A stretch of 64,000 nt of DNA from Candidatus Aenigmatarchaeota archaeon (GTDB lineage: Archaea; Aenigmatarchaeota; Aenigmatarchaeia; QMZP01): the NCBI GenBank assembly GCA_016783545.1, contig JADHWJ010000004.1, forward strand, positions 27,513 to 91,512. Direction: 5' to 3'. The notes below the pieces were generated by a model. It was not told where the DNA came from. It worked only from the letters and a program-made list of their open reading frames with translations, and did not search any database. The translations under genes and the position numbers were made by a program. Positions 35,622 through 55,953 of this stretch are shown piece after piece; the stretch's first letter is position 1; the number at the start of each line of letters is the position of its first letter.

Positions 35622-35732
35622 TGGGCTCGGAGAGGTCTTCGGCTTTGCTGAAGGCAAGTGCCTTAGCACAACGATCGAACTCCCGGCCTCCACGTTATCA
35701 GCGTGGCGTTCTAACCACTGAACTACGAGCCC
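35622..35732 (-). tRNA. tRNA-Ile(GAU) with ~38-nt intron at the T-loop/T-stem junction
   Basis: GGGCTCG-TA-GTTC-AGTGGTTA-GAAC-G-CCACG-CTGATAA-CGTGG-AGGCC-GGGAG-TTCGATC-[GTTGTGC...GAAGAC]-CTCTC-CGAGCCC-A. Confidence 0.8.
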
Positions 35733-50254: not shown

Positions 50255-50455
50255 CGCTCCCGCGGGGATTTGAACCCCGGTTTCCAGCAAGTATTCTCCG
50301 AGAAGAATACTCCTCTCCGGGTATTTTCGCTCACGGAACCCTTTTCGAGGCTTCCGCCATCGCCCAAAAGCGTTCACGGAAAACCCTTTCAAAGGTTCTC
50401 ACTTTTTTCGAAGCTCGAAAACCCGGCATACTTGACCAGGCTATACTACGGGAGC
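50255..50455 (-). tRNA. tRNA-Glu(UUC) with two introns (canonical 37/38, ~93 nt; variable region, ~33 nt)
   Basis: GCTCCCG-TA-GTAT-AGCCTGGTCAA-GTAT-G-CCGGG-TTTTCG[93 nt]A-CCCGG-AGA[hairpin GAGTATTCT..AGAATACT..]C-CGGGG-TTCAAAT-CCCCG-CGGGAGC-G. Confidence 0.7.
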
Positions 50456-53666: not shown

Positions 53667-54464
53667 TTAACCAATATACCTTAGTTGTTCTTTACCTTTG
53701 ACAGGTGCTCTCTCTTCTTTTGATATCTGCATCAAAGCTTTTCTTTGAAGCTCTTCTACTTTCTTTATGAATTTTTCCATTTCCTTTACCCTTTCTTCTA
53801 GCCTATTCATGCTTACTTTAAGTTTCAAGACCTTTGTTATGGAATTTAGCACTGATTCAGCTGATTTTGGGTCTGTTACTATAGGAAATCCAGATGTTTC
53901 TCCAAGTACGCATATACCTGACATGCCTCTTTCTTTACCAAGACCTAAAAACAAGCCAGCAGCGCCTACTATATAACCAACCTTTTCTCCTGCAACAAAG
54001 TCTATGCCAGATTTTTCATATTTCTTAATTATCTTATCATCTGTGGCAGCTCCGATTATACCTGGTTTTTTTTCTATCTCACCGGTTGCAAGTCCACCTA
54101 TAGTAATCATCTCTTTAACGCCTAGTTTTTGTATAAACTCCAGTACAGATTCAACAACATCATAATGACCATTCGGTGAAAGACTTTGACAGTCACCTGT
54201 CATAAATACAATATCTCTTTCACCAGCCTTCTTTGCTTTGTAATAATAAAACTTATTTTTTAACAATCCGATTTTAAAGTCATCGTGAAGTATTACAAAT
54301 GGAAAAAAGTGCTCTGAATATAATTCTGCGAATTTCTTTGCTTTAAGCTCTTTTATAAGGTAGCCAGCAGCAACTCTTCCTATATTTCCAACACCAGGCA
54401 AACCTTCAATAAAAATAGGGTTCTTTAGCTTAGGAATTTTACCAATTTTTTTAATAGTAGTCAT
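53667..54464 (-). CDS. PAC2-family (proteasome assembly chaperone-like) protein
   Basis: NPIFIEGLPGVGNIGRVAAGYLI..., followed by a C-terminal coiled coil. Confidence 0.5.
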   Translation of the reverse strand: MTTIKKIGKIPKLKNPIFIEGLPGVGNIGRVAAGYLIKELKAKKFAELYSEHFFPFVILHDDFKIGLLKNKFYYYKAKKAGERDIVFMTGDCQSLSPNGHYDVVESVLEFIQKLGVKEMITIGGLATGEIEKKPGIIGAATDDKIIKKYEKSGIDFVAGEKVGYIVGAAGLFLGLGKERGMSGICVLGETSGFPIVTDPKSAESVLNSITKVLKLKVSMNRLEERVKEMEKFIKKVEELQRKALMQISKEERAPVKGKEQLRYIG

Positions 54465-54559
54465 ATAATCACTTATTTTAATATATTAATTCTTCTTTAT
54501 AAATTGTTAACATAAACAGAAACATCAATTAATGCATTATTCAGACTAAACAATGCAAT

Positions 54560-54575
54560 TGGACCCGTAGCTCAG
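54560..54575 (+). repeat. orphan copy of the tRNA-Arg 5' end (TGGACCCGTAGCTCAG), left direct repeat
   Basis: Exact 16-nt match to 55714-55729. The two copies bracket the LAGLIDADG-like ORF. Confidence 0.8.
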
Positions 54576-54608
54576 TTTATTTTTTATATATGAAATTGAA
54601 TTAATAAT

Positions 54609-55724
54609 ATGAGAGTAAAGCTAATTGGTAATAAACAGAACGAGTTCTTGAAAAAAGTCTTAACCAATATTCCTCAAAAGGAATTAGCTAAACAACTTGG
54701 AGTATCTAGAAGTTGTATTCGTAAATGGTTGCGCTCTGATAGGTTATTACCAGATCATGTATTCAAAAGATTATGTGATGATTATAAATTGCAAGAATAT
54801 AGAAAATATGTTTTAGAGCGACTTGAAGATAATTGGGGACAAGTAACTGGTGGTAGAGAAAAAATAAAAAACGTGAAAGATATCAATAAATTAATGGAAG
54901 TGGTTAGAAAAAGTAGAATATCTTCTAAAGTTATTCATATTAAAAAAGTTAATACGAAAACAAAATTTGGTTTAGATGTGAAAAAAATGAATCTTGATCC
55001 GACACCTTTGATCATTGTAATGTTACTGACTGATGGTTGTGTTCATATAAAAAAGACATGTGCAGAGATAGTATTTATATCAAAAAGTAATGAATTAATT
55101 GATATTTTTTTGGAACTTGTAAGAATGAAATATGATGATGTAAAAATAAGTTTATATGAAAATAAAAAATCTATTAAAAAAGTGTATTTTTTTCTACCTT
55201 TAAGAAATGAACTAGTTACTATCATACAATCTTACAAAAAATCACCTTGTGGTGAAGGGATTACAAATTATCTTAAAAAGTCCCAACCAACATTGAATTT
55301 TCTTATGAATTTAAATGAAATTTATAAAGTTTTGAGTCTAAGATTGGCATTTACAACTGAAGGGTGTATTACAATGGCGAAATATAATCGTCGAAGTGAA
55401 TTGGTAATAAAACCAAAACTTATAATAGCATGTTCGCATCCTAAACTTTGTATGGGATGGAAAAAGATACTAGAACAATTTGGGTTAAAGTTTAGTGTAA
55501 TGAAGGATAATAGTAAATGGAGTGGTATATCAGGTCTTTGTTCTGAGAATCAAAAAAATATACACAAGTTTTATAAAATGGGGGGTTTTATAAGAAATGT
55601 TAAAATAACAGGAAAAAGTAAGTATTTTAAAGGAATAGAAAAAAATAAGTTATTAGAAGTATTTGTGAGAAGAAAGAAGTTTAAAAGTATAAATGAGATA
55701 AATAAAGTGTTGATGGACCCGTAG
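54609..55724 (+). CDS. LAGLIDADG-like double-motif homing endonuclease candidate with N-terminal HTH
   Basis: HTH IPQKELAKQLGVSRSCIRKWL. Motifs IIVMLLTDGCV and LRLAFTTEGCI lie ~110 aa apart. The stop codon TAG lies inside the tRNA-Arg acceptor/D region (CCG-TAG-CTC). Confidence 0.5.
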   Translation: MRVKLIGNKQNEFLKKVLTNIPQKELAKQLGVSRSCIRKWLRSDRLLPDHVFKRLCDDYKLQEYRKYVLERLEDNWGQVTGGREKIKNVKDINKLMEVVRKSRISSKVIHIKKVNTKTKFGLDVKKMNLDPTPLIIVMLLTDGCVHIKKTCAEIVFISKSNELIDIFLELVRMKYDDVKISLYENKKSIKKVYFFLPLRNELVTIIQSYKKSPCGEGITNYLKKSQPTLNFLMNLNEIYKVLSLRLAFTTEGCITMAKYNRRSELVIKPKLIIACSHPKLCMGWKKILEQFGLKFSVMKDNSKWSGISGLCSENQKNIHKFYKMGGFIRNVKITGKSKYFKGIEKNKLLEVFVRRKKFKSINEINKVLMDP

Positions 55725-55729
55725 CTCAG
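55714..55729 (+). repeat. right direct repeat (functional 5' end of tRNA-Arg)
   Basis: TGGACCCGTAGCTCAG, identical to 54560-54575. Confidence 0.8.
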
Positions 55730-55953
55730 GATATTTCTCCATAAAAAACAATTTTAAAATAATATGGCGAAATATGAGCAGTTGGATTAGAGCACCAGAC
55801 TTCTAATTATAGAAGTTTCGAGAATCCTGGAAAGGGTTCTGTGAGAAGAAATCTGGGGGTCGAGGGTTCGAGAGACCCTTTTTCAAAAAAGCGTCTACAG
55901 AAAAGGAGCTGACGCTTCCAATGAGAAAGGCTCAGAAAACCCCTCCGGGCCCA
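55715..55953 (+). tRNA. tRNA-Arg(UCU) with three introns (D-loop ~51 nt, canonical 37/38 ~45 nt, T-loop ~66 nt)
   Basis: GGACCCG-TA-GCTC-AG[51 nt]GTTGGATTA-GAGC-A-CCAGA-CTTCTA[45 nt]A-TCTGG-GGGTC-GAGGG-TTCGA[66 nt]AC-CCCTC-CGGGCCC-A. There is an A3:C70 mismatch in the acceptor stem. Confidence 0.7.

Follow-up and report, generated by a model that had tools for sequence, protein, structure and literature searches.

The closest described precedent for the locus reported here is the tRNA-Thr(GGU) gene of Caldiarchaeum subterraneum, in which a 5′ tRNA fragment is followed by a 1.9-kb insertion with one open-reading frame (ORF) on the same strand and then by the rebuilt tRNA gene, which carries an extra, non-canonical intron beside the junction, at position 24/25 (PMC3293823). 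The 813-bp ORF, designated 'b', was predicted by a support vector machine to be a putative recombinase, the event was ascribed to pNOB8-type integration, and Sugahara et al. (2012) proposed the insertion as a way in which introns are gained and tRNAs become fragmented (PMC3293823). Here, we describe a related arrangement in a 64,000-nucleotide stretch of DNA, referred to below as the window, from Candidatus Aenigmatarchaeota archaeon, a DPANN archaeon (GCA_016783545.1, contig JADHWJ010000004.1, positions 27,513 to 91,512 of the forward strand). An ORF of 371 amino acids lies in the window between a 16-nucleotide orphan copy of the start of a tRNA-Arg(UCU) gene and that gene itself, and with a probability of roughly 0.7 we read it as a free-standing, tRNA-specialised LAGLIDADG homing-endonuclease cassette that sits in the D-loop of the tRNA-Arg gene, having displaced the resident 5′ end and supplied its own. 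Compared by its published description, the Caldiarchaeum gene shares with the window a 5′ fragment, a single same-strand ORF, a rebuilt tRNA, and an intron at the junction; it differs in being one locus in one population, whereas here the ORF is of the LAGLIDADG type and overlaps the tRNA, and the layout is found again and again, in eight loci. A literature search found no paper tying LAGLIDADG genes to archaeal tRNA 5′ ends.

The LAGLIDADG enzymes of archaeal rRNA bulge-helix-bulge introns (I-DmoI, I-Tsp061I, I-PorI) share with the window ORF the predicted fold, the acidic residues, an archaeal host, and a link to a stable-RNA gene and to bulge-helix-bulge introns. Their ORFs, however, lie inside the intron and leave no duplication, whereas the window ORF lies outside a 52-nucleotide intron, has an extra helix-turn-helix (HTH) domain and a putative promoter of its own, and is flanked by a duplicated exon segment. 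Integrative elements of the SSV/pNOB8 type likewise target tRNA genes, leave the tRNA end directly repeated, and rebuild the gene, but they use tyrosine recombinases and span kilobases to tens of kilobases, while the window element is without an integrase. In the strict sense, the locus probably falls outside the intron-encoded class, and it is not one of the integrase-type elements; we rate it as a homing-endonuclease element that is new in its class of target and self-repairing in its architecture. Free-standing endonuclease genes are also known from 'collaborative' or trans homing, as with F-CphI beside the psbA intron of cyanophage S-PM2 and mobE of T4 with I-TevIII. The likeness here is an endonuclease gene beside an ORF-less intron that would interrupt the target and protect its carrier, the two being inherited jointly; the differences are other enzyme families, bacterial phages, and group I introns, and collaborative homing needs no duplicated gene segment because its flanking homology is long. 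In endonuclease elements of fungal mitochondria, such as that of Allomyces atp6, the ORF brings with it a copy of the terminal part of the target gene, which takes the place of the resident part and leaves it as a displaced fragment. These differ from the window element in their protein-coding target, the replacement of the 3′ end, the organellar setting, and the endonuclease families involved.

The 16-mer TGGACCCGTAGCTCAG occurs at 54560-54575 and again at 55714-55729, as a preliminary description of this DNA had stated, with no third copy in the window when up to two mismatches were allowed; a match was found in 0 of 100 dinucleotide shuffles, and none is expected by chance. Similarity between the two sites reaches 21 of 23 nucleotides, the last seven differing at two (TTTATTT versus GATATTT). 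The downstream copy is the start of a three-intron tRNA-Arg(UCU) gene, and exact 16-nucleotide direct repeats of a partial tRNA gene thereby flank both borders of the element. When the four exons were joined by hand, they gave a 75-nucleotide cloverleaf that ARAGORN calls as tRNA-Arg(tct), with one acceptor-stem mismatch, A3:C70, in agreement with the preliminary description. In the raw DNA, the gene was missed both by ARAGORN and by Rfam (gathering and E-value thresholds). The unspliced precursor folds far better than shuffled sequences (z = -4.9), with the acceptor stem and intron hairpins kept. The features of the locus, all on the plus strand and in window coordinates, are as follows.

54560 to 54577, plus strand: orphan copy of tRNA-Arg nucleotides -1 to 15, TGGACCCGTAGCTCAG, followed by TT; an exact repeat, the tRNA part being 54561-54575
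54576 to 54590, plus strand: T-run TTTATTTTTT (54576-54585) overlapping the TATA box TTTATATA (54583-54590), as read from the sequence
54609 to 55724, plus strand: 371-amino-acid ORF, with its stop codon TAG (55722-55724) formed by T8-A9-G10 of the tRNA
54648 to 54788, plus strand: HTH domain within the ORF, about residues 14-60
54963 to 55613, plus strand: predicted double LAGLIDADG core within the ORF, about residues 119-335
55032 to 55034 and 55359 to 55361, plus strand: acidic residues of the two motifs, D142 (LLTD142G) and E251 (TTE251G)
55680 to 55694, plus strand: TTTAAAAGTATAAAT within the last codons of the ORF, a candidate promoter for the rebuilt tRNA, assigned from its motif
55715 to 55729, plus strand: tRNA-Arg(UCU) exon 1, nucleotides 1-15, the downstream repeat copy, from the repeat and cloverleaf
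55730 to 55781, plus strand: intron 1, 52 nucleotides, D-loop position 15/16, with a helix-bulge-helix; it sits exactly where the orphan ends
55782 to 55805, plus strand: exon 2, nucleotides 16-37, with the D-loop, 3′ D-stem, and anticodon stem and loop (anticodon TCT), from the cloverleaf
55806 to 55850, plus strand: intron 2, 45 nucleotides, canonical position 37/38, from the cloverleaf and precursor fold
55851 to 55871, plus strand: exon 3, nucleotides 38-58, from the cloverleaf
55872 to 55938, plus strand: intron 3, 67 nucleotides, T-loop position about 58/59, its boundary ambiguous by 2 nucleotides, as both splice variants give a valid cloverleaf
55939 to 55953, plus strand: exon 4, with the 3′ T-stem, 3′ acceptor strand CGGGCCC, and discriminator A, C70 standing opposite A3, from the cloverleaf

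General caution is due to any arrangement known from metagenome assemblies alone, and an assembly artefact had been named beforehand as something that would undo the case. That the repeat is an artefact or a product of chance is nevertheless scarcely credible. Besides the outcome of the shuffles and the same layout in other samples, the Logan assembly contig SRR12042682_38671 matches the window without a difference along 7116 nucleotides, both repeat copies included, and an identical independent assembly, together with a 16-nucleotide repeat shorter than assembly k-mers, makes an artefact very unlikely. A target-site duplication of the transposase type was also considered and rejected, there being no transposase and the repeat coinciding with a functional gene segment.

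The 371-amino-acid ORF is the only ORF of at least 60 amino acids on its strand between the repeat copies, and its termination at tRNA nucleotides 8-10 confirms what had been described. Pfam assigned HTH_3 to the N-terminal region at threshold, while LAGLIDADG_3 scored 18.2 bits, below its threshold of 22.5, and when PDB was searched by sequence alone, using the profile of the family, only HTH proteins and no LAGLIDADG protein came back. An AlphaFold2 model built from a 55-sequence alignment reached a predicted local distance difference test score (pLDDT) of 95.4 and a predicted template-modelling (TM) score of 0.82, and when this model was compared with PDB by Foldseek, LAGLIDADG enzymes filled the top of the list. 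The best of these were I-Tsp061I (E 4e-7) and I-DmoI (TM 0.66-0.70), both at a target-normalised TM of about 0.6-0.7, with further matches to I-AniI, bI3 maturase, I-OnuI variants, and PI-PfuI, and with WhiA at ranks 2, 7, and 13. An acidic residue (D or E) at positions 142 and 251 and a glycine at 143 and 252 are present in all 55 aligned homologs. Structure prediction and motifs alike place the protein in the family, and with high confidence it is predicted to consist of an N-terminal HTH and a double, single-chain LAGLIDADG fold with two alpha-beta-beta-alpha-beta-beta-alpha domains that pack through the two LAGLIDADG helices, which bears out the domain assignment made earlier from two motifs and an HTH. 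The conserved acidic pair, a putative metal-binding catalytic pair in which each residue ends a LAGLIDADG helix, and the glycines after it favour a predicted active nuclease over a WhiA-like or maturase-like derivative. The ORF has a GC content of 27.3%, whereas the remaining long ORFs in the window have 34.5 ± 3.1%, which marks it as compositionally foreign.

A profile search spanning 1.84 billion cluster representatives matched 1433 clusters with E <= 1e-3, of which 100 had E <= 1e-30, indicating a large, unannotated family, to which word-indexed profile searches added two proteins. Its members are rare singletons, in 90%-identity clusters of 1-3 sequences, and stand in unrelated genomic contexts. 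About 22 clusters among the top 150 profile matches share the N-terminal HTH region of the window ORF and an NWG motif. The first five homologs found have a different N-terminus and 29-37% local BLAST identity, and three of the five adjoin DUF763 genes. At one locus of this sister subfamily (L009:2683-5614), a 57-amino-acid N-terminal fragment of DUF763 is followed by the LAGLIDADG ORF and then by a full-length, divergent DUF763 gene; the fragment is 54% identical to the DUF763 protein of a second locus (L006), compared to 28% for the full-length gene downstream of it, whereas L006 and L007 have their DUF763 gene on the upstream side of the ORF. The order at L009 repeats the fragment, ORF, and complete gene of the tRNA cassettes at a protein-coding gene, and by its look it is an archaeal protein-gene counterpart of the fungal mitochondrial elements.

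The arrangement recurs at related ORFs. Eight loci of the HTH-LAGLIDADG subfamily were compared, namely the window and seven loci fetched from different metagenomes, with ORFs 31-42% identical to the window ORF over the 55-sequence alignment. Three of the seven (P0011, P0013, P0024) were chosen by identity alone and four (P0020, P0026, P0038, P0042) for their tRNA-like C-termini. They are listed here with identity to the window ORF.

L210 (P0011, 42%): orphan GGGCCCATAGCTCAG plus TT, then the TATA box; the ORF stop TAG is tRNA nucleotides 8-10; complete tRNA-Arg(TCG)
L213 (P0020, 37%): orphan intact, GGGCCCGTAGCTCAG plus TT; the ORF ends GGC CCG TAA inside the tRNA; tRNA-Arg(CCT) with an intron at 9/10
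L214 (P0038, 32%): orphan decayed; the ORF ends GGC CCG TAA inside the tRNA; tRNA-Lys(TTT) with an intron at 9/10
L216 (P0013, 38%): orphan decayed; the ORF stops 9 nucleotides before the tRNA; tRNA-Arg(TCT) with a D-loop intron at 15/16 like that of the window
L218 (P0024, 36%): orphan decayed; the ORF stops 57 nucleotides before the tRNA; tRNA-Arg(TCT) with a D-arm intron at about 22/23
L215 (P0026, 34%): no orphan seen; the ORF ends at the D-loop TAG in the other frame; tRNA not parsed
L219 (P0042, 31%): no orphan seen; the ORF ends at the D-loop TAG in the other frame; tRNA-Ile(GAT)

At all eight loci, a tRNA gene directly follows the ORF (tRNA-Arg in five, tRNA-Lys in one, and tRNA-Ile in one, the type being read in all but L215), and at six of them the two overlap. 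An orphan tRNA 5′ fragment stands just before the TATA box of the ORF at six of the eight, its preservation ranging from intact to decayed (about 11 of 15 nucleotides kept in L214, L216, and L218), and the region from orphan through TATA box to start codon aligns in six loci, most of which have a TATA-like block at the ORF start. The downstream tRNAs, by comparison, are intact wherever the contig reaches the tRNA 3′ end. Of the seven loci parsed (L215 left out), five carry an intron in the rebuilt tRNA, at 9/10, 15/16, or about 22/23, and the element measures 1.1 kb at every locus where both ends are seen. The stop codon TAA of L213 and L214 is built from T8, A9, and the first base of the intron. 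These comparisons modify the preliminary description, in which the upstream copy was a target-site remnant left by insertion of an endonuclease cassette at the tRNA 5′ end: the insertion of a cassette is supported by the orphans of five other loci, while the site is better placed in the D-loop at nucleotides 15-17 and the repeat is more plausibly a copy of tRNA nucleotides 1-15 that the cassette carries.

Locus L210 (2950-2966 and 4110-4236) has a nested order, in which the orphan of one tRNA, 'a', is followed by the ORF, by a complete tRNA-Arg(TCG), 'b', and by a relic of the 3′ part of 'a'. The relic comprises the variable loop, the T-arm, and the 3′ acceptor strand TGGGCCC; this strand complements the orphan at 7 of 7 positions, and not the functional tRNA, indicating that a resident tRNA was physically split by the ORF together with a foreign tRNA. 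The two 3′ portions at this locus are 74% identical over 34 nucleotides, and a chimera of the 5′ part of 'a', the body of 'b', and the 3′ part of 'a' is accepted as a tRNA by ARAGORN, making a second product possible. The rebuilt tRNA-Arg(TCT) of L218 (3653-3748) has two G-U wobbles in its acceptor stem (GGGTCCG / CGGGCTC), and these, like A3:C70 in the window, could speculatively be scars of a hybrid 5′/3′ origin.

The overlap with tRNA genes is also reflected in the proteins. C-termini of a tRNA-like kind (GP, [PA][VI][AV], S[SL]AW), patterns that were picked after the data were seen, end 12 of 155 family proteins compared to 8 of 1155 control ORFs. They are translations of GGGCCCG-TAG, of CCCGTAGCT-TAG or CCGGTGGTG-TAG, and of AGCTCAGCCTGG-TAG, respectively, and the four of the 12 that were checked in DNA do all end in a tRNA.

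The layout of promoter-like motifs bears on which copy of the repeat is in use. A T6 run follows the window orphan and the TATA box lies 18 nucleotides before the ATG of the ORF; the T-run may stop upstream transcription, and the TATA box is a putative promoter of a leaderless ORF mRNA. Both other tRNA genes in the window have the motif TTTAAAAG / ATATAAAAG ending 21 nucleotides upstream, and a similar motif, at TTTAAAAGTATAAAT, ends 27 nucleotides upstream of the rebuilt tRNA-Arg. Judged from these motifs, the downstream copy looks like the working tRNA 5′ end, and with its own promoter, the ORF, a tRNA promoter, and tRNA nucleotides 1-15, the cassette looks self-contained. Transcription of orphan, ORF, and tRNA as one unit, as envisaged in the preliminary description, is disfavoured by the T-run, the recurring TATA box, and the tRNA-type motif before the downstream copy. 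On a hypothetical co-transcript of ORF and tRNA, RNase P cutting at G1 (55715) would strip the stop codon and give a non-stop mRNA (window 55713-55724).

The same locus can be parsed as a tRNA gene that starts at 54561 and has a giant bulge-helix-bulge intron at D-loop position 15/16, covering 54576-55781 (1206 nucleotides) and holding both the ORF and the duplicate of exon 1, in the manner of the LAGLIDADG-bearing rRNA introns of Crenarchaeota; the mature tRNA would be equal from either 5′ splice site. The helix-bulge-helix of intron 1 reads GCUC[AGG]AUAUUUC...GAAAUAUGAGC[AGU], a 4-bp helix with 3-nucleotide bulges on either side, and the preliminary description had held that only the downstream copy could pair in this way. 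That claim does not stand, as the orphan and the downstream copy alike pair with the 3′ end of intron 1 in the same geometry (GCUCA/UGAGC, a 3-nucleotide bulge, and a 6-bp helix), at -8.8 kcal/mol for the orphan with its next 7 nucleotides compared to -13.1 kcal/mol for the downstream copy. The pairing of the orphan, an insertion that is formally at 15/16 as a whole, and the archaeal intron-encoded nature of the nearest structural relatives, I-Tsp061I and I-DmoI, would all fit a giant intron. The decayed orphans of L214, L216, and L218, however, stand beside intact downstream tRNAs (that of L218 with its two wobbles), indicating that in these three loci the orphan is not a working exon. The T6 run after the orphan, the recurring TATA box, and the tRNA-type motif at the downstream copy also argue against it, and a giant intron offers no reason for a duplicate of exon 1 within it. 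The ORF is outside the 52-nucleotide intron 1 and would fall between splice sites only if the orphan served as exon 1. We consider this parsing unlikely.

Another possibility is that the protein is a domesticated, WhiA-like HTH-LAGLIDADG regulator that would bind the DNA of tRNA D-arms, with the orphan as an operator for autoregulation and no mobility left. The high rank of WhiA among the structural matches and the position of the orphan, abutting the TATA box of the ORF in most of the six aligned loci, are consistent with such a role, and repression of its own promoter is known for I-TevI, a homing endonuclease. WhiA, however, has lost the catalytic acidic residues, which are kept throughout the 55 homologs here. 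Rare singleton members with a patchy distribution in unrelated contexts, the split resident tRNA of L210, and the decay of the orphans are likewise not what a regulator would predict, and we regard this role as quite improbable.

Direct repeats of a tRNA end around foreign DNA are also the classic signature of site-specific integration, and the repeats could be att-type relics of a plasmid or virus that integrated at the tRNA 5′ end and was mostly lost later. The same layout in Caldiarchaeum was explained in favour of pNOB8-type integration (PMC3293823). The sole gene between the repeats, however, is of the LAGLIDADG type, with no tyrosine or serine recombinase and no Pfam integrase domain, the element is 1.1 kb wherever both its ends are seen, and the repeat is 16 nucleotides compared to the 44 bp given for the att site of SSV1 (as cited in PMC3293823). 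No relatives were found in the phage and plasmid records, or in viral contigs scanned with a narrow alignment. This origin appears distinctly improbable.

For the reading as a self-repairing homing cassette, we start from the observed repeat, conserved catalytic residues, and recurring architecture and from the predicted fold; cleavage, the target, the route of repair, and a role of the intron in immunity are proposed from sequence. The three well-preserved orphans end in GCTCAG plus TT, the TT of the window orphan matching nucleotides 16-17 of an intron-less gene, and an intron-less tRNA-Arg reads GCTCAG|TTGG, which places the break in the D-loop after nucleotides 15-17. The cassette would have four parts, namely a TATA box for itself, the HTH-LAGLIDADG ORF, a tRNA-type promoter in the last ORF codons, and a copy of tRNA nucleotides 1-15. 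Its enzyme would cut naive tRNA genes in the DNA of the D-arm (GCTC...GAGC), a natural pseudo-palindrome common to many tRNAs, and the break would be repaired by copying the cassette-bearing allele, with the orphan as the left homology arm and the tRNA body as the right. On insertion, the resident 5′ end would be pushed upstream to become the orphan, while the 5′ copy brought by the cassette would join the remaining gene, keeping the essential tRNA intact. With a different tRNA as the target, homology would exist on the left only, and joining on the right would be illegitimate, as the tandem 3′ ends of L210 may exemplify. An uninterrupted rebuilt gene would recreate the target, and an intron at 15/16, or at 9/10 or about 22/23 in relatives, would interrupt the recognition site and make the rebuilt gene immune to its own enzyme; all three positions fall inside a 20-22-bp site centred on nucleotides 15-17. 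A hybrid gene, its 5′ strand of the donor type and its 3′ strand resident, may have left A3:C70 as a scar. We take the orphan itself to be the resident 5′ end after displacement, the left homology arm of the cassette, or both. The mechanism, although inferred, is well constrained.

Several points weigh against this mechanism. The orphan also has A3, and a hybrid-gene account of A3:C70 would then need co-conversion; instead of representing the resident end, the orphan may have come with the cassette. A stretch of 15-17 nucleotides is short for a homology arm. No orphan is visible in two of the eight loci (L215 and L219), and the window orphan has no tRNA promoter motif of the TTTAAAAG type at the usual distance, promoter motifs being in any case weak evidence in a genome of 34% GC. 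The occupied locus was also compared with related genomes, 80 related loci being taken via the neighbouring PAC2 gene, and no empty allele of the window tRNA-Arg locus was found among them. Even the nearest of these genomes reach just 75% identity in PAC2, and another tRNA stands at this position in them. Mobility has indirect support from the split resident tRNA of L210, the decaying orphans, the singleton clusters, and the foreign GC content of the ORF.

On one flank, the locus is bordered by genes for ribosomal proteins, RpoK, and the PAC2 protein, and on the other by genes for an AP_endonuc_2/xylose-isomerase-like protein and a class I lysyl-tRNA synthetase (LysRS). The relatives of the PAC2 protein are at most 75% identical, and all come from metagenome-assembled genomes of Aenigmatarchaeota or other DPANN. 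In none of the 80 loci is tRNA-Arg(TCT), the ORF, or the downstream AP_endonuc_2 gene present within 5 kb of PAC2, indicating that synteny breaks exactly at the orphan. In the eight loci in which the region upstream of PAC2 was read, it contains tRNA-Glu and/or tRNA-Ile, many with introns at non-canonical positions. Synteny with the 80 relatives stops at the start of PAC2 (window 54464-54560), and the module of orphan, ORF, and tRNA-Arg may have arrived by, or have caused, a rearrangement. A scan of the 80 loci with a hidden Markov model gave a single distant, small LAGLIDADG ORF (L038, E 2.5e-5) in another layout. This ORF (L038:3000-3680, minus strand) encodes about 205 amino acids with two LAGLIDADG motifs (ILMGDG, LFATDG), has a masked run of N adjacent to it, and lies about 100 nucleotides downstream of a tRNA gene starting with GGACCCGTAGCTCAG. 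A metagenome scan with the exon pattern TAGAGCACCAGACTTCTAA was uninformative on the empty site, as the matches listed were mostly intron-less tRNA-Arg genes of eukaryotic or bacterial look and repeated non-tRNA sequence.

The introns of these tRNA genes have further resemblances among themselves. A motif in intron 2 of the tRNA-Arg, GGAAAGGGTTCTGTGAG (window 55829-55845), recurs twice, as GAAAGGGTTTTCCGTGA and GAAAAGGGTTCCGTGAG (50330-50346 and 50374-50390, minus strand), in a large intron of tRNA-Glu(UUC) at about 50255-50455 on the minus strand, a recurrence suggestive of an intron module common to both genes or of an element that is K-turn-like or binds a protein. The T-loop introns of several Aenigmatarchaeota tRNAs, including the window tRNA-Arg (55911-55925, GACGCTTCCAATGAG) and the tRNA-Ile upstream of PAC2 at four of the related loci (L023, L037, L041, L058), have in common a hairpin with CTTCCA after it, and they may belong to one family of related and perhaps mobile introns at 58/59. 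The sole Rfam tRNA match in the window covers the first 57 nucleotides of a tRNA-Ile(GAT) (35676-35732, minus strand) and breaks off after TTCGA, so that this gene too probably has a T-loop intron like intron 3 of the tRNA-Arg. ARAGORN found no tRNA in the 64-kb window, from which it follows that standard tools badly under-call the tRNAs of this genome.

The origin of introns at odd positions and of split tRNA genes in Archaea has been debated since Nanoarchaeum. One proposal is that tRNA genes are disrupted by mobile elements and protected from them by introns (the suggestion of Randau and Söll, as summarised in PMC4390854; see also PMC3293823). That proposal has so far been without an identified enzyme, and the cassette family offers an identifiable one: the window and its seven relatives tie an endonuclease family to tRNA 5′ fragments and to D-arm introns at or near the break point, a linkage that opens the hypothesis to test with a single protein and a handful of synthetic DNA substrates. 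A wider reading, which we put forward as tentative and on balance doubtful, is that HTH-LAGLIDADG cassettes generally produce the disrupted tRNA genes of Archaea, with free 5′ fragments, D-arm introns, the spread of introns and hybrid genes, and some ORFs perhaps expressed from a spliced-out tRNA intron of kilobase size. The non-canonical bulge-helix-bulge intron in the D-arm would then be selected or installed because the rebuilt gene becomes immune to the enzyme. If this were true, each invasion would leave a free tRNA 5′ fragment as raw material for split tRNAs, and introns and hybrid tRNA genes would be carried between isoacceptors and lineages. Since loci of this kind are invisible to ARAGORN and Rfam, the tRNA sets of DPANN archaea are under-called. 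For the family itself, bringing along a replacement 5′ end and promoter would be a way for a selfish gene to occupy an essential RNA gene unspliced, and its enzymes would be new meganucleases with specificity for tRNA genes.

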